From positions 96,001 to 160,000 of the forward strand of contig JBEIPA010000011.1 in the NCBI GenBank assembly GCA_040377305.1: a stretch of DNA of 64,000 bases, given 5' to 3'. Position numbers and translations under genes: made by a program. The DNA comes from Flavobacteriales bacterium (GTDB lineage Bacteria; Bacteroidota; Bacteroidia; Palsa-965). Each line of letters starts with the position of its first letter. The stretch's first letter is position 1. This document shows, in pieces, positions 4,937-51,497 of this stretch. Below the pieces are notes generated by a model. The model made no database searches. It saw only the letters and a list, made by a program, of their open reading frames with translations, and was not told the DNA's origin.

Positions 4937-6742
4937 GTGAACATTAACCGCAATAACGCCGAAGCCTTCTTCCTCGATTACTACGAGGGGAACTTGTCCG
5001 AAGGACAGGTGGCCGAGATGTTTGCGTTCCTGAAAGCGAATCATGATCTGCGTGAAGTGTTTGAAGCTTTTTCCAATATTCAGTTGGATGCCGAAGATGA
5101 TTCCGACTCGACACTCATTCATCATTCCTCTTCCGACCGAACTCCCGATTTCTCTTTCCTGAAGAAAGAACCTGTTGTTGATATTCACGAGAAAGCTCAG
5201 GAGTGGATGGTTGATTTTGTGGAGGGAACTATTTCTGTTGAAGACAATACTTCGCTCGGGAAATACCTGGCTGAAAATCCTTCGAAGCGTGAAGAACTTG
5301 CAGCTTTTGAGAACACCGTATTACGTGCAGACGAAAACGAAACAATCGGCGATCTCAGTAGCCTGAAGAAAGAAACGGCGATCACGTCCGAGAATTTCGA
5401 GCACTATGCAATTGCATTGATTGAAGGAACCATTTCTCCGAATGAGAAATCGCTCCTTGAGTCATTTGTGCTCACGCATCCTGAGTTCAGTATTCAACTC
5501 GATTCATTCCGGGATTCTGTTCAGAAAGCAGACGAGTCGATTGTATTTGACGCGAAATCGTCTTTGAAGCGTTCTTCAGTTGTGGTTACCAAAGACAACA
5601 TCGAAGAATTGCTCTTTGATAAAACAGAAGGACAACTTGCCTCTCACGAAGAAGCAGCAGTGGATGCATTCCTTGCTGCAAATCCGGAATACAAAAACGA
5701 TCTCGGGTTATTGGCGAAGACAAAACTCGTTCCTGATACAACTGAAACGTTTGACGCGAAAGACAAACTCAAGCGCGGAGTAACTTTGATCAACGAAAGT
5801 AACTTCGAACAGTATTTGATTTCGGCTTCAGAAGGATTGCTTAACCGCGAGGAGTTGAAGGCGTTCAATTCATTTGTTGTCACACATCCGAAATACAGAA
5901 ATGCACTTGCTCTTTACGCTGCAACAAAATTGCAACCGGATATGTCTGTCGTGTACGACGACAAAGAAGGACTGAAGCGCAAAGAAAAAGGTGCGATCAT
6001 CTGGTTCAGCGTAGGATTCCGTTATGCGGCGGCAGCTGTGCTCGTGATTTTGCTCAGCGTTTATTTCTGGACGAAGTTCGATGCTTCTAATCAGGGAGAT
6101 GTTGAAATGGCGGATAAAACGAAGCAGAATTTCCAGAACAATGACGTGATCCCACTCGATAACAATACGCAGCCGGGCACGAATCCAAACGCGCTTGCAA
6201 GCAACACCGACGAAAACACTTCAAAGTTTCCGGAGTGGAACACAAACAATGCAAACAAGGATGACGTGAACGGATCGCGCAAGGTTGTGGATCCTAATCC
6301 GGAGGAAAATATTCTTGTTGCAACTTTCACACCGATAACAATCCTGGTGTCAAGTATTCCGAATGGGGCAAACGAAAGTGTTGCATTCTCGGGGGCGTTA
6401 TATGACGTTGTATTCAACGACAACAACAAGACGCAACCTGTTGCCGAAGTTCCTGCAGATGATTACATCACTCCGGGACAATTAGCAATGCGTTGGATGA
6501 AAGACAAGATTGACGGCACTGATCCTATGCTGGTAAGTGGGCAGGATGATGTTGTGAACACATGGAGTGCACCGGGCAGTAAGCCAGATCCAAAAGACAA
6601 AAACGTCGATGGAATGGACATCACCGAAAGTGCAGTGAACCGTGTTGGGCAATCGGCTGCTCATGGCAATATCGCTATGGAGCAGCGCAAGGACGGAACG
6701 TATCTGCAGCTGTGGAATTACGAAGTGCGTGTGGGGAAGTAG
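4937..6742 (+). CDS. Putative transmembrane anti-sigma factor with five tandem N-terminal repeats
   Basis: Downstream of the ECF sigma; five ~67-aa repeats (EG.L/I...F...NP/HP...LKK/R), one TM helix (RYAAAAVLVILLSVYFW), extracytoplasmic tail. Confidence 0.7.
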   Translation: MNINRNNAEAFFLDYYEGNLSEGQVAEMFAFLKANHDLREVFEAFSNIQLDAEDDSDSTLIHHSSSDRTPDFSFLKKEPVVDIHEKAQEWMVDFVEGTISVEDNTSLGKYLAENPSKREELAAFENTVLRADENETIGDLSSLKKETAITSENFEHYAIALIEGTISPNEKSLLESFVLTHPEFSIQLDSFRDSVQKADESIVFDAKSSLKRSSVVVTKDNIEELLFDKTEGQLASHEEAAVDAFLAANPEYKNDLGLLAKTKLVPDTTETFDAKDKLKRGVTLINESNFEQYLISASEGLLNREELKAFNSFVVTHPKYRNALALYAATKLQPDMSVVYDDKEGLKRKEKGAIIWFSVGFRYAAAAVLVILLSVYFWTKFDASNQGDVEMADKTKQNFQNNDVIPLDNNTQPGTNPNALASNTDENTSKFPEWNTNNANKDDVNGSRKVVDPNPEENILVATFTPITILVSSIPNGANESVAFSGALYDVVFNDNNKTQPVAEVPADDYITPGQLAMRWMKDKIDGTDPMLVSGQDDVVNTWSAPGSKPDPKDKNVDGMDITESAVNRVGQSAAHGNIAMEQRKDGTYLQLWNYEVRVGK

Positions 6743-6852
6743 TAAGTAGTTAAGGTTTTAAGTAGGCGAGTAAACGAACTTCAGTTTTCTGCTCCCTTTT
6801 TTATTTAAAATTCATGACTTGCCTACTTAAGGACTTAGGGACTTACAACTTC
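6743..6852. repeat. Inverted 8-mer repeat element
   Basis: TTAAGTAGGCGAGT 6758-6771 / ACTTGCCTACTTAA 6817-6830, followed by GACTTA.. units. Confidence 0.6.
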
Positions 6853-20204: not shown

Positions 20205-20394
20205 TGCCTGCGGCGCTTACCACGGCGGCTCGGCGTTACGGCGTGTGCTTGGTGCGTGATTACCAATACCCATCCGGCGTTCACGGTGTTGTGATGTCAG
20301 GGTCCCAATCTTGACATTGATATACGCCGTGTCCTCCGGTTGGGCCTAAAACCATCAACACTTACTCCGTTTCGCCGTGGTTGGCCTCGCAGAG
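20205..20394. repeat. Gene-less CCACGG-family inverted-repeat element (copy A)
   Basis: TGCCTGCGGCGCTTACCACGGCGGCTCGGCGTTACGGCG 20205-20243; degenerate inverted end CGCCGTGGTTGGCCTCGCAG. Confidence 0.8.
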
Positions 20395-24055: not shown

Positions 24056-24126
24056 CAATACGCAATTGTCAATGCGCAATACGCAGTCTATAGGGCTTGC
24101 GTATTGCGCATTGTACATTGCGCATT
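24055..24126. repeat. Inverted heptamer array between convergent genes
   Basis: GCAATAC-type units; perfect IR CAATGCGCAATACGCA 24070-24085 / TGCGTATTGCGCATTG 24098-24113. Confidence 0.8.
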
Positions 24127-28625: not shown

Positions 28626-28720
28626 TGCCTGCGGCGCTTACCACGGCGGCGCGGCGTTACGGAGAAAATCCTTTGGAATTATACCCAATACTATCGGGAC
28701 CGTGGTAAGCGCCGCAGGCA
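28626..28720. repeat. Gene-less CCACGG-family inverted-repeat element (copy B)
   Basis: Perfect 21-bp IR TGCCTGCGGCGCTTACCACGG 28626-28646 / CCGTGGTAAGCGCCGCAGGCA 28700-28720. Confidence 0.9.
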
Positions 28721-28727
28721 ACCGCAG

Positions 28728-29090: not shown

Positions 29091-29176
29091 GTTCCCCGTT
29101 TCCAGTTCCGGGTTTCCCGTTAAGTTGGACTAAGTAACGATATTCAACAGGGAACTGGAAACAGGGAACGGGGAAC
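29091..29176. repeat. Inverted heptamer array between divergent genes
   Basis: GTTCCCC/GTTTCCA/GTTCCGG/GTTTCCC mirrored by GGGAAC/GGAAAC units. Confidence 0.8.
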
Positions 29177-37896: not shown

Positions 37897-40734
37897 TTAA
37901 TGCGCTTCCAGCCAACTCTTACCCGTTCCCATTCCCACTTCCACCGGAACTTTCAGTGGTAAAGCTTCACGCATGCATTTTTCAATTACAGGCTTAATGA
38001 TTTCGATTTCATCTTTCGGAACATCGAAAATCAATTCGTCATGCACCTGAAGCAACATACGCGTTTTGTATTTGCCTGTTGAAAGTTCTTTGTGAATGTT
38101 GATCATCGCGAGCTTGATCATATCTGCTGCTGAACCTTGAATCGGAGCGTTGATGGCATTTCGTTCTGCGAATCCACGTACGACTGCATTCGCTGAATTG
38201 ATATCGCGCAAATAACGACGACGACCGCATAACGTTTCAACGTAACCTTTGTCGCGCGCCGATTGCTGCATTGAATCCATGTAATCGCGTATGCTGCTGT
38301 ATTCACGGAAGTAATTATCGATAAGTGTTTTCGCTTCGCCACGTGAAATCTGCAAATTCTCTGCAAGTCCGAATGCGCCCTGACCGTAAATGATTCCGAA
38401 GTTTACGCTCTTCGCTTTGTAACGCATCTCTTTCGTTACTTCTGATTCAGCGATTCCGTAAACTTTCGCAGCAGTGGCGGTGTGAATGTCGATTCCTTTG
38501 TTGAACGCATCACACATTCCAGGATCACCGCTCATGCTTGCAACAATGCGCAATTCAATCTGCGAATAATCGGCGCTGAGCAAAACGTGATTTTCGTCTT
38601 TCGCAACAAACGCCGCACGGATTTTTCTTCCACGCTCGGTTCGCACAGGAATGTTTTGAAGATTCGGATTATCAGAACTCAAACGTCCGGTAGCAGCCAC
38701 AACCTGATTGAAGGAAGTATGAATGCGTCCCGTGTTCGGATGAACCATTTCAGGAAGTGTATCGACATACGTATTCTTGAGTTTTACCAATTCACGATAA
38801 TCAAGAATCTTATCTACGATCGGATGCTTTCCTGCGAGTTTCTGCAGAACATCTTCACCGGTTGCATACTGACCGGTTTTGGTTTTCTTCGGTTTGTCGC
38901 CGCCTACTTTCAAGACTTCGAAAAGAATATCACCAACCTGCTTTGGTGAAGAAATGTTGAATGGCGTTCCTGCAAGTTTCTGAATTTCTTCGTCAATGAT
39001 TGCAATTTCTTTTTCGAGCTCGGCCGAGTAGGTGTGCAATACTTCTTTATCGAGCGAAATTCCTTCACGCTCCATTGCTGCAAGCACTGGCATCAAAGGC
39101 ATTTCAATCGTATCGAAAACACCTTGAGCATTGTGTTCACTCAATCCCGGCGCAAATAGTCCTTTCAGTTGAAATGTGATGTCTGCATCTTCGCCGGCGT
39201 ACTCTGCAATTTTGTCGAGAGGAGCGTCGCGCATGGTGAGTTGCGCTTTTCCTTTTTTACCAATGAGCGTTTCAATACTCACCGGAGAATAGCTGAGATA
39301 AGTTTCAGCCAATAAATCCATTCCGTGACGCATATCGGGATTCAAAAGATAATGCGCGATCATCGTATCGAACATCGGTTCAGAAACGAGTATGTTGTAA
39401 TTCTTCAGCACACTCAGATCGTACTTGATGTTCTGTCCGATCTTCACAATGGATTTACTCTCGAGAACGGGCTTGAATTTATCAGCAATCTTTTGCGCTG
39501 CTTCTTTCTCCGCAGGCACAGGAACATACCACGCTTCCGCAGCTTTCCACGCGAATGAAAATCCGACAAGCTCTGCAGTGAGTGTATCCAGACCAGTTGT
39601 TTCTGTATCGAAGCAAACTTCCTGCAACGTCAGCATTTCTTTGACCAGGGAATCAATCTTCTCCTCTGTATCCGCGATGTGATAGGTGTGCGGAACAGTC
39701 TCAATCGTTTTTAGTGTAGTCGTTTCCGGCTCTGCTTCAGCAATACTCGCTCCGGTGTTTCCGAAAATATCAATTTGTCCCGGCTTGGTTTTGCGTCCTG
39801 CTGTTGACTCATCGTTTGTAACCGGTCCCTTGTCAGACTGCTCGTTTGTTGGTGCAGGAAGTTCTTCTCCCAACACTGTTTGTGCCAGACGACGGAATTC
39901 CAACTCGCCAAATACAGCTTTCGTTTTTTCTTTGTCTACTTCACGATAAAGCAACTCATCTGCATTGAATTCCATACCGGGAATATCAGTGATGATTGTT
40001 GCCAGCTTTTTGGAGAACACCGCCTGCTCTTTGTGATTCTCTACTTTCTCTTTCAGTTTGCCCTTCAGCTGATCTGTATTCACAATCAGATTTTCCACTG
40101 AACCGAATTGCTGAATCAAACTCATTGCGGTCTTTTCACCAACACCTGGAATTCCGGGAATGTTGTCGACAGAATCTCCCATGAGTCCGAGAATGTCAAT
40201 CACTTGTTCCGGACGTTGGATGCCATACTTCGCACAAATTTCTGCTACACCAATTTTTTCAGGAGGTCCGCCTTTGTAGCCCGGCTTGTAAATGAAAATA
40301 TTTTCCGACACGAGTTGACCGTAGTCTTTGTCGGGCGTCATCATAAATGTGGTGAATCCTTCTTTCTCTGCTTTCTTGGCGAGTGCACCAATAATGTCAT
40401 CCGCTTCCCAGCCGTCGCTCTTAATGACAGTGATGTTGAATGCTTCCAGCAAAGTAAAAATATACGGAAGTGCTTTCTGCAGATCTTCCGGCATCTCATC
40501 GCGGTTCGCTTTGTACTCGGTGTACTCAATGTGCCGATGCGTTGGCTCAGCAGTATCAAACACTACAGCAATGTGCGTTGGCTTCTCTTTCTTGAGGAGT
40601 TCAAGAAGTGTATTTGTAAATCCAAAAACAGCGGAAGTATTGAGTCCGGCAGAGTTAATGCGCGGTGCGTTAGCGAAGGCAAAATAGGCACGGTAGATCA
40701 GTGCGAATGCATCGAGGAGAAACAGCTTTTTCAT
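37897..40734 (-). CDS. polA: DNA polymerase I
   Basis: LFLLDAFALIYRAYFA, FDTETTG, TGRLSSDNPNLQNIP, ADYSQIELR, QVHDEL; start reassigned to MKKLFLLD at 40734. Confidence 0.98.
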   Translation of the reverse strand: MKKLFLLDAFALIYRAYFAFANAPRINSAGLNTSAVFGFTNTLLELLKKEKPTHIAVVFDTAEPTHRHIEYTEYKANRDEMPEDLQKALPYIFTLLEAFNITVIKSDGWEADDIIGALAKKAEKEGFTTFMMTPDKDYGQLVSENIFIYKPGYKGGPPEKIGVAEICAKYGIQRPEQVIDILGLMGDSVDNIPGIPGVGEKTAMSLIQQFGSVENLIVNTDQLKGKLKEKVENHKEQAVFSKKLATIITDIPGMEFNADELLYREVDKEKTKAVFGELEFRRLAQTVLGEELPAPTNEQSDKGPVTNDESTAGRKTKPGQIDIFGNTGASIAEAEPETTTLKTIETVPHTYHIADTEEKIDSLVKEMLTLQEVCFDTETTGLDTLTAELVGFSFAWKAAEAWYVPVPAEKEAAQKIADKFKPVLESKSIVKIGQNIKYDLSVLKNYNILVSEPMFDTMIAHYLLNPDMRHGMDLLAETYLSYSPVSIETLIGKKGKAQLTMRDAPLDKIAEYAGEDADITFQLKGLFAPGLSEHNAQGVFDTIEMPLMPVLAAMEREGISLDKEVLHTYSAELEKEIAIIDEEIQKLAGTPFNISSPKQVGDILFEVLKVGGDKPKKTKTGQYATGEDVLQKLAGKHPIVDKILDYRELVKLKNTYVDTLPEMVHPNTGRIHTSFNQVVAATGRLSSDNPNLQNIPVRTERGRKIRAAFVAKDENHVLLSADYSQIELRIVASMSGDPGMCDAFNKGIDIHTATAAKVYGIAESEVTKEMRYKAKSVNFGIIYGQGAFGLAENLQISRGEAKTLIDNYFREYSSIRDYMDSMQQSARDKGYVETLCGRRRYLRDINSANAVVRGFAERNAINAPIQGSAADMIKLAMINIHKELSTGKYKTRMLLQVHDELIFDVPKDEIEIIKPVIEKCMREALPLKVPVEVGMGTGKSWLEAH

Positions 40735-40757
40735 CACTACAAATGTAGCCACGATGT

Positions 40758-41370
40758 GGCTGCTTAACCACGGCGTCACAGCGAGCACGGCTAAAAAATT
40801 TAGTTTTATCCGTTTTCAAACGTTTGTTACCGACTAATGCGAAAAACACGATTTACGTTTGCAGAATAACCTTTAAACCTTAATAATATGAAAGTCCAGA
40901 AACCAGAATTTATGAGAGAGAATCACGAAATCGGAGCAAACTTTACTGTTGACGAAGATTGGGACCATTTAACTACAAAAATCATGGATGCATGTTTCGC
41001 TGTGCATCGTGAAATGGGACCAGGTTTAAAAGAGGAGATTTACCAAGCCTGCCTTTTGAAAGAGTTTGAGTTGAGAGAAATCAAGTTCGAGTGTCAGGTA
41101 AGAGTTCCAATGCTTTACAAAGGACACGATTTGAAGAAGCATTTGATTCTCGATTTGCTTGTTGAGGATAGGATTATTCTTGAGCTGAAAGCAACGGAGG
41201 AAATCACAGGATTGTTTCAAGCGCAACTGTTGAGTTACCTGAAGCTCACCAATCGTAAAATTGGTTACATCGTCAACTTCAATGTTTCAATGCTCAAGAC
41301 GGGCATCAAGCGAATGAAGAACGGATACTAACAAAAGCCGTGCTCGCCGTGCCGCCGTGGTAAAGCCGCC
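40758..41370. mobile_element. Putative GxxExxY cassette bounded by 35-bp inverted repeats
   Basis: 40758-40792 GGCTGCTTAACCACGGCGTCACAGCGAGCACGGCT versus the reverse complement of 41336-41370: 31/35 identical. Mobility is inferred. Confidence 0.55.
40888..41331 (+). CDS. GxxExxY protein (PD-(D/E)XK nuclease fold)
   Basis: VHREMGPGLKEEIY, LDLLVEDRIILELKA, AQLLSYLK, GYIVNFN. Confidence 0.92.
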   Translation: MKVQKPEFMRENHEIGANFTVDEDWDHLTTKIMDACFAVHREMGPGLKEEIYQACLLKEFELREIKFECQVRVPMLYKGHDLKKHLILDLLVEDRIILELKATEEITGLFQAQLLSYLKLTNRKIGYIVNFNVSMLKTGIKRMKNGY

Positions 41371-41452
41371 GGCATGGCCGGCACAGGTAACCAGAAGCCC
41401 CTAAACATTGCTGTTTAAGGGCCTCGGCGGAAACTACTACTAAGGGAAACTC

Positions 41453-42043
41453 TTACTTGGTGCCTTTCTGCCCTTCGTGTTCAGAAGCGTACCAGTCATT
41501 ATATTCTTCGATCACCGACTGCATGTCTTTGATCTCGTATTTCTTGTCTTCAGACTCGATGCGTGCAACGAGTTCGCTGTTGTCGGCCATCATTTCAGAA
41601 ACTGTTTTCTTAAAGTGATTGCCTTTTAACTTCTTCAGGCTCTTCGATTCGCCTTCTGTATTTTCAACATAGAAGTCTTTTTCAACTTCTGTCTGTTCGC
41701 CGTGGTAAACTTCAAATTGCCACTCGAAAAGATTGATCTTCCCTGCGGACACTAATTTAAGAAAAACCAGCTCCTTGTCCATAGAACGACTTAGAAATCT
41801 CACGCCTTCGTATGAGAATTCTTTCACGTCCTCCGGCTTGTAATTTTTCTGGACTCCTTCCGCATTTTTAAGAGTCACTTTCGTGAACAATGGGAGCTCC
41901 TTTTTCGTGTTGTATTTGATTTCGCCTTTCAGCGTATCGCCATTGGTCAGGATCACATAACCCTGTTTCCACACTAATTCAGCCTTTGCTGCTGTAAACG
42001 AACCCAGAACGAGTAGCAGGACGAGAGTAAGGTGTTTCTTCAT
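41453..42043 (-). CDS. Hypothetical exported protein
   Basis: Signal peptide from MKKHLTL; GYVILTNGDTLKG motif; terminator-like hairpin near 41397-41423. Confidence 0.7.
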   Translation of the reverse strand: MKKHLTLVLLLVLGSFTAAKAELVWKQGYVILTNGDTLKGEIKYNTKKELPLFTKVTLKNAEGVQKNYKPEDVKEFSYEGVRFLSRSMDKELVFLKLVSAGKINLFEWQFEVYHGEQTEVEKDFYVENTEGESKSLKKLKGNHFKKTVSEMMADNSELVARIESEDKKYEIKDMQSVIEEYNDWYASEHEGQKGTK

Positions 42044-42143
42044 TGCAGCCCAAATTAAGGTCATAAAGGCCTGAATTCAAAGGTGATGTTAGGAACTGTG
42101 TCGAAATGTTGAAAAGTGGGGGAATTGTGGATAACCCGGGGTT

Positions 42144-42176
42144 TAACCCTGCAAGAGTTTAACCCTTGCAGGGTTA
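42144..42176. repeat. REP-like palindrome (AACCCTGCAAGGG family)
   Basis: TAACCCTGCAAGAG-TTTAA-CCCTTGCAGGGTTA; overlaps the stop codon of the MBL gene. Confidence 0.8.
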
Positions 42177-43262: not shown

Positions 43263-43323
43263 GATGGTGTTTTTGGTGGCTTTAGTATAGTCGTGAATGA
43301 GGGTGAAATATTGTAGTCTTGGG

Positions 43324-43480
43324 CATAACCCTGCAAGGGTTAATCCCTTGCAGGGTTATGCGCGCGCGCGAGTTACAACGATTTTTTCGCAATAGTCGGG
43401 AGTAAACGTTTGAAAACGGATGTGGTTGATGAATTAGGCACCCTCCAAGGGTTTAACCCTTGCAGCGTTAACCCTGCAGG
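43324..43480. repeat. Two further AACCCTGCAAGGG-family palindromes
   Basis: CATAACCCTGCAAGGG-TTAAT-CCCTTGCAGGGTTATG 43324-43360; degenerate copy 43440-43480. Confidence 0.8.
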
Positions 43481-51426: not shown

Positions 51427-51497
51427 CTCCGGCTGGGCTTAGAATCATAAACACTTAACGCCGTAACGCCGAGTCGCCGTGGTAAGCGTCGCAGACA
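51427..51497. repeat. CCACGG-family element (copy C)
   Basis: The reverse complement of 51459-51497 differs from 20205-20243 at 3 positions; interior CTCCGGYTGGGCYTARAAYCATMAACACTTA is shared with copy A. Confidence 0.85.

Follow-up and report, generated by a model that had tools for sequence, protein, structure and literature searches.

Genes of the GxxExxY family and the inverted repeat arms on either side of them form a unit that is real and widespread. We describe it here from one copy beside polA in a 64-kb stretch of DNA (hereafter the window) and from its counterparts in other genomes. Judging from sequence, the unit works like REP/RAYT or Ssn/SRM systems but would belong to neither, because membership fails on the enzyme. 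In the reading that we favour, with a probability of roughly 55%, the predicted nuclease would recognise arms of its own type on DNA and make a nick nearby, after which host recombination would copy or swap arms among intergenic sites. The link between gene and arms is apparently absent from print: the initial annotation of this DNA knew of no mechanistic description, and our literature search, with subscription papers and supplements mostly outside its scope, gave no description of the link either.

The window corresponds to G000:C10:96001-160000, and its promoter boxes and nearest named homologs suggest a member of Bacteroidota. The features of the locus and the related repeats in the window are listed in Table 1. 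The two type A arms around the gene are 35 nt long and complementary at 31 of 35 positions (89%), as the initial annotation had stated, and are separated by 543 nt. It had also placed the element directly against the polA -7 box, and the sequence in question, TACATTTG on the minus strand, does lie there, 5 nt before the polA ATG. The putative promoter boxes of both polA and the GxxExxY gene were assigned on the basis of TAnnTTTG, which we take to be the Bacteroidota -7 consensus. The promoter-like layout upstream of the GxxExxY gene was found at nine sites in the genome and at 8 of 96 family loci. A sigma-70 promoter scan returned hits at chance level only, and the sigma-70 model is ill-suited to this lineage. 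The 196-aa ORF on the right had no NCBIfam or Pfam match.

Table 1. Features of the GxxExxY locus and related repeats in the window.
Feature	Position	Strand	Remarks
GxxExxY protein gene, 147 aa, predicted PD-(D/E)XK nuclease fold	40888..41331	+	E49, D89, E99-x-K101 and Q113xxxY117 present
Left arm, type A	40758..40792	+	Core of three 8-9 nt CACGGCG-like units from 40767
Right arm, type A, inverted copy	41336..41370	-	Starts 5 nt past the stop codon
Left outer hairpin	40747..40761	.	6-bp perfect stem, 3-base loop; 5 nt outside the arm core
Right outer hairpin	41368..41382	.	6-bp perfect stem, 3-base loop; 6 nt outside the arm core
Inferred gene promoter region, inside the arms	40818..40861	+	AAACGTTTG, 27 nt, TAnnTTTG box
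Inferred polA -7 box	40740..40747	-	Directly outside the left end of the element
polA, left neighbour	37897..40734	-	Transcription directed away from the element
Right neighbour, 196-aa ORF	41453..42043	-	Converges on the element; adjoins polA in the genus
Gene-less doublet, sister arm type B	20205..20394	.	End approximate
Gene-less doublet, type B	28626..28724	.	Right arm shortened
Type B arm	51458..51497	-	Full partner arm not seen in 200 nt inward

Two further observations concern the surroundings of the element. Within 40732-40747 the inferred polA -7 box ends 5 nt ahead of the start codon, and the sequence that would precede this box has given way to the element, in a slot occupied by many different elements in the genus. 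Directly past the stop codon of the right neighbour, at 41392-41452, there is a hairpin followed by GGCGGAAACTACTACT-type sequence, and the AAACTACTACT part of it is present in all 23 polA-site rows of our genus comparison. This segment had no match in Rfam; it is possibly an RNA element of a new type.

The protein matches TIGR04256 (135.1 bits, cut-off 35) and PF13366 (133.1, cut-off 22). These were its only matches: no HUH Y1 transposase domain was detected, nor any GIY-YIG match in Pfam at E ≤ 0.1. The predicted structure has a pLDDT of 86, with residues 1-21 unreliable. Its nearest solved folds, all modest matches, are lambda exonuclease, Cas4, AddAB and restriction enzymes (best Foldseek E 2.4e-3; best Z 7.4, with an rmsd of 2.8 over 93 residues). 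Residues E49, E99, K101, Q113 and Y117 are invariant in 70 sequences and D89 is found in at least 90% of them; we take these to be the catalytic and RecB-type motifs. The protein is thus predicted to have a PD-(D/E)XK core fold with the D and ExK residues; the initial annotation had taken this fold as established for GxxExxY proteins, with no assigned function. It is a member of PDDEXK_3/PF13366/TIGR04256, a family whose function is entered as unknown in PMC3424549. The family passage there also describes multiple transfers and mixed clades, and makes no mention of flanking repeats.

We scanned the genome (G000) for the arm sequence and found 37 type A arms at up to two mismatches. This is far above chance, as the reversed pattern gave 0 matches and five shuffled cores gave no match under 8 mismatches. 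The arms make up 12 inward-facing, intergenic, gene-less doublets of 84-238 bp in addition to the gene-bearing pair, and none of the type A gene-less copies lies inside the window. The initial annotation had reported that the arm core recurs without a gene at 20205, 28626/28700 and 51459. These repeats are real and gene-less, but they are of the sister type B and nearer to the arms of a paralog elsewhere in the genome (G000:C11:49393). Three of them match the left arm of that paralog at 30-33 of 40 bases and the local arms at 18-23 of 40, while the shortened arm at 28700 has 23 matches to the paralog's arm and 14-16 to the arms of the local gene. Type B is represented by 41 arms in the genome, and two matches are common to types A and B.

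The genome contains eight GxxExxY genes. The seven other paralogs are 29-46% identical to the window gene, with no near-identical copies among them, and all eight differ in their inverted arm pair (for the C53 gene the best-scoring pair is not the repeat arm). When four mismatches were allowed in 24 bases, the arm types of the seven paralogs that could be anchored, out of eight, had 37, 39, 27, 21, 44, 2 and 3 copies, with a reversed control of 0; five of the seven have 21-44 copies of their own arm type and two have only 2-3. Type A arms begin with GCTTT-like bases. In DNA folding the left arm core of the window element is unpaired or weakly paired, and the right arm pairs only with outside sequence. 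The spacers of the doublets are AT-rich and unrelated to one another. A MITE-like origin of the doublets by internal deletion is unsupported, since 11 of 13 spacers are no closer to the cassette interior than shuffled sequences are; the other two have low scores of 26-28. No consistently placed direct repeat indicative of target duplication was found at 14 elements, and the relatives and sequencing runs offered no near-identical empty allele. With unrelated AT-rich spacers and no placed target duplication, the doublets resemble REPIN/BIME elements more than deletion derivatives.

Other repeats were noted in the window. Further gene-less doublets of short tandem units, of other sequence types, are found at 6736-6852, 24057-24126 and 29091-29176; types like these are present at the polA site of some relatives. 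Another repeat family, of REP-like palindromes, is represented at 42139-42176, 43321-43358 and 43433-43470; one Y1 gene has such a repeat nearby.

Intergenic doublets with inward-facing arms would form long stems in a transcript, and tRNA splicing endonucleases are among the weak fold matches of the protein. The unit could on this basis act on RNA, with arms pairing in transcripts, the protein or a host RNase processing the stem, and the doublets serving as intergenic RNA stems. We consider this very unlikely. At the polA locus the inferred promoter of the gene is situated downstream of the left arm, and polA is transcribed away from the element. A sense transcript of the gene would then include just one arm, with no pairing of the two arms in it, a layout that speaks for DNA rather than RNA here. 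The fold neighbours of the protein are mostly DNases, and the Rfam search gave no match at E ≤ 1.

Many type A arms carry a short hairpin on their outer side. A perfect 4-7 bp stem with a 3-base loop, located 4-7 nt outside the core, was found at 19 of the 37 arms, compared with 4.7% of shuffled and 6.3% of random sequences and 0 for 4-base loops. The sequence of this hairpin differs from copy to copy. It is also present at 10 of 24 arms in relatives, and both ends of the polA-site element carry one, 15 nt in length. In a closer metagenome relative (L134) all six pairs of the left stem are kept through one two-sided change, while the right stem has one two-sided change and one G-T pair. These changes suggest that the structure of the hairpin matters, although template switching can produce two-sided changes without selection. 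The conservation in L134 weakens the idea that the hairpin is a one-off insertion footprint. We rejected it as a family-wide feature, with 13 of 89 arms positive compared with 6.9% of shuffled sequences.

The association of gene and arms extends across the family. We identified 170 family matches in 41 related genomes and analysed 96 loci, leaving out one genome (G012). Inverted arms with a score of at least 30 were found across the gene at 72 of the 96 loci, compared with 3 of 400 control ORFs; matches in direct orientation were found at 17 of 96. For a wider sample we took the best 80 loci from a species collection, dropped eight with short flanks or no motif, and scored the remaining 72. 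Among these best loci, which come from many phyla, arms were present at 41 of 72, including 16 of 26 outside Bacteroidota, with swapped flanks passing in 9% and direct orientation in 19 of 72. The initial annotation had counted homologs without flanking arms against its reading; they do occur beside the loci with arms, as 24 of the 96 related loci and 31 of the 72 wider-sample loci fell below the arm score.

Arm types map onto protein clades. For 67 loci (the 72 with arms, minus four dropped on inspection and one with a short protein), arm similarity was correlated with protein identity (Mantel rho 0.30; 0 of 2000 permutations reached this value), at least part of which descent alone would yield because gene and arms are physically linked. 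At 46 of 53 loci, the arms resemble those beside the closest protein of another genome more than they resemble the arms of paralogs within the same genome. From these comparisons, arm sequence appears to follow the protein tree rather than the genome. The cross-genome pattern of flanking inverted repeats that co-vary with the protein, proposed in the initial annotation, was therefore recovered.

Repeat abundance also tracks the gene. In 40 genomes the density of a generic arm pattern was correlated with the number of GxxExxY genes (rho 0.71; reversed control 0.04), a value that overstates the relationship because the compared genomes are kin. The initial annotation had asked whether the repeat is equally common in genomes without the gene: seven of eight gene-less genomes are at background density, but the eighth, G028 (97% complete, 150 contigs), has 54 arm-like matches, several of them at contig ends. 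Two more genomes are exceptions. G016 has seven GxxExxY genes and only four pattern matches. G023 (96% complete, 540 contigs) has 15 type A arms and no gene with type A arms, its best protein being 49% identical to that of the window. G028, in which our search detected no GxxExxY gene, also has large arrays of CCGCAAAG-type arms (L169:460-1145). In both G023 and G028, contig breaks may conceal the gene.

Repeats for which no cognate gene was detected, as in G023 and G028, are what might be seen if the arms were spread in trans by a Y1 (HUH) transposase or by generic recombination, with the GxxExxY gene as long-term cargo. This genome has ten Y1_Tnp matches, the AAACGTTT motif is near seven of the ten Y1 genes too, and the short hairpins outside the arms would suit HUH recognition as it is outlined in passages of PMC8266576. 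Type A arms in G023 also frame an ORF that is not a GxxExxY gene, a 110-aa frame with hydrophobic stretches (L133:622-1028), possibly a case of cargo capture by arms. We regard spreading in trans as unlikely, however: none of the ten Y1 genes has type A, type B or generic GxxExxY-type arms within 600 nt, and it is the GxxExxY tree that arm type follows and the GxxExxY gene number that repeat density follows.

To characterise the polA site we compared the 21 genus genomes in which polA adjoins this right-hand neighbour; of the 23 rows in the comparison, G001 (polA beyond the contig) and G012 were set aside. A GxxExxY gene is present at polA in 4 of the 21, in three lineages that are 49-53% identical and have three arm types. 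G021, G007 and G026 have gene-less doublets of other GxxExxY-like types at this site, several genus genomes have other hairpin elements, and G003-G006 have a bare interval of 100-110 bp. Empty sites in relatives, which the initial annotation had suggested looking for, are thus found. Its other expectation, that stable synteny with polA would speak against a mobile element, met a mixed picture: empty sites exist, but gene, arms and site are all kept in two closer metagenome relatives, L134 (84% protein identity) and a contig of run X4, as well as the gene in the four genus genomes. Contigs of X4 also contain gene-less type A doublets.

A single origin of the four polA-site genes was not rejected (AU p 0.145 and 0.102), and neither was a single origin at the C50 site (p 0.237). 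We set aside a p of 2e-5 for the C10:11404 site, where two of the four genes are at the other end of the flanking gene. Between G000 and G023 the polA-site pair is 49% identical, compared with 65-80% for five other syntenic paralog pairs. Each type is a single copy and is mostly inherited vertically, given the shared site in L134 and X4 and the five further paralogs that are syntenic with G023. Between the window gene and the L134 copy, pN is 0.11 and pS is 0.78 (polA pS 0.65). We conclude from this, together with the shared site in L134 and X4, that the gene is long established at the polA site and evolves under purifying selection. Overall, inheritance of the gene is mostly in place, with occasional gain or loss at individual sites. 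Stability at polA makes an active transposon less likely. A RAYT-like system is compatible with it, as RAYT genes are mostly vertical according to the part of PMC5581495 that deals with their inheritance.

Sites that hold full cassettes in relatives vary in G000. Three are bare (C49:70790, C48:101530 and C50:167370), one has a doublet of the matching type (C56:75130) and two have a doublet of another type (C46:147620 and C6:16010). The sequencing runs listed for this sequence included no RNA run. In contigs of 4 of the 22 runs we found no junction that would represent loss of the cassette at polA; the junctions present link one arm with another and derive from gene-less doublets at other places.

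A gene held in place under purifying selection would also fit a domesticated host function, by analogy with SsnA in Neisseria. The protein would then cut its cognate arms, for instance to gate incoming single-stranded DNA, and turnover would be a by-product without spreading. The five other paralogs at the same sites in G023, the absence of near-identical copies among the eight paralogs, the lack of any relative of the protein in viral contigs (a single-sequence scan) and the SsnA precedent, as presented in portions of PMC11893778, are all consistent with this. We nevertheless rate it as rather improbable, because on its own it explains neither the type-specific expansion at unshared sites nor the patchy gain and loss of full cassettes.

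Turnover of the repeats between genomes is extensive. Type A is bound to a lineage, being found in 5 of 27 genus genomes (37, 15, 4, 2 and 1 arms) and in 2 of 401 class genomes. We mapped 11 type A sites of G023 onto G000, seven of them by both flanks. A type A arm was present at 0 of the 11 corresponding positions, which have nothing, type B or other elements. Two doublets have two different arm types (G000:C45:29030-29108 and L142:576-660), which suggests that arms are exchanged one at a time.

Our favoured reading, copying of arms by host recombination after an arm-specific nick, would proceed as follows. The GxxExxY protein would recognise the tandem 8-9 nt units of its cognate arm, probably when the DNA is single-stranded or extruded; in type A arms the outer hairpin with its three-base loop would serve as a further signal. 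It would make a hydrolytic nick beside the arm. Host repair would then transfer copies of arms from one intergenic site to another; this would take place through recombination or gene conversion with sites that also bear arms, and without cut-and-paste. Such a process would be expected to leave doublets with unrelated AT-rich spacers, doublets of mixed arms, and sites at which one element type has given way to another; all three were observed. A hydrolytic nuclease of the PD-(D/E)XK fold forms no covalent intermediate, so it cannot itself carry out the joining step; this class of enzyme would not perform strand transfer, unlike the REPtron enzyme. The initial annotation had proposed a REP/RAYT-like system with a non-HUH enzyme. 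The architecture of such a system is supported by the flanking arms, gene-less doublets, co-variation, density and empty polA sites, but the empty copies that it cited are of another paralog's type.

Insertion sequences with MITEs also combine a gene between terminal inverted repeats with gene-less elements that have the same ends, and the GxxExxY unit resembles them in this respect. It differs from them in having no transposase match, no near-identical copies and no positioned target duplication (14 elements), and in having doublet spacers that bear no relation to one another nor, for the most part, to the cassette. REPtrons (RAYT/TnpA-REP with REP, BIME and REPIN) are closer, as they are described in sections of PMC8266576 and PMC5581495: cognate repeats flank the gene, intergenic inverted doublets have a variable linker, repeat abundance tracks the gene, and the gene is mostly vertical. 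Unlike REPtrons as portrayed in those sections of PMC8266576, however, the GxxExxY protein has no HUH/Y1 domain and is not among the ten Y1_Tnp places, no GTAG-type tag was seen on its arms, and the arm is not a self-palindrome.

The Ssn nucleases, which cut their own flanking repeats as single-stranded DNA, provide the other comparison (PMC11893778, in the portions that treat NTS and SRM). In both systems a small nuclease gene of a single domain is bordered by repeats on its left and right, the flanking repeat is dispersed in the genome, and each homolog has its own variant. Two-sided flanking is given there as 42% for Ssn, whereas we found it at 72 of 96 and 41 of 72 GxxExxY loci by a different test. 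According to the same portions, Ssn is a GIY-YIG enzyme (cd10448) and SRMs are hairpins of 20-50 nt; GxxExxY is PF13366 with a PD-(D/E)XK model, and its arm core consists of 8-9 nt direct units, with a left arm that does not fold alone and a separate short outer hairpin. Unlike Ssn, eight GxxExxY paralogs with different arm types are found in one genome. Cleavage has been demonstrated for Ssn (PMC11893778) and is predicted for GxxExxY proteins. In L134 a GIY-YIG gene (PF01541) lies beyond the neighbour gene (L134:3979-4572); it may be Ssn-like.

The gene-arm link gives each member of a common nuclease family of no assigned function a named candidate substrate, and function is therefore directly testable with oligonucleotides. 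The eight paralogs of this genome, with their distinguishable arms, offer built-in specificity controls. If GxxExxY proteins cut, systems of a nuclease plus its own repeat would have arisen in three unrelated folds (HUH, GIY-YIG and PD-(D/E)XK). How REPs spread is described as still unresolved in the passages of PMC8266576 that concern it; if GxxExxY proteins cut, the spread of intergenic repeats could be studied with an enzyme class that would depend on host repair for joining. A broader and more tentative proposal, which we think may well prove wrong, is that the GxxExxY family consists of evolution-programmable, arm-specific DNA nickases, the PD-(D/E)XK counterpart of RAYT and Ssn. Paralogs would drive their own repeats by nick-primed copying without a transposase, repeat populations would compete for the same intergenic slots, and arm pairs could capture other genes. 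Thousands of natural enzyme-target pairs could then be readable straight from DNA.

The AAACGTTT motif was considered as a specific component of the GxxExxY-arm system and rejected, as its 91 strand hits are in many contexts. The CCGTTT-CAAACGTTTG-CCGACT motif family (window 40807-40846 and 43374-43421) accounts for the 91 strand hits genome-wide. It is found near seven of the ten Y1 genes, upstream of some small genes, GxxExxY genes among them, and in the gaps that separate REP-like palindromes, and in nine places it lies 27 nt before a TAnnTTTG box. It may be the site of a shared regulator or may belong to a further family of repeats.
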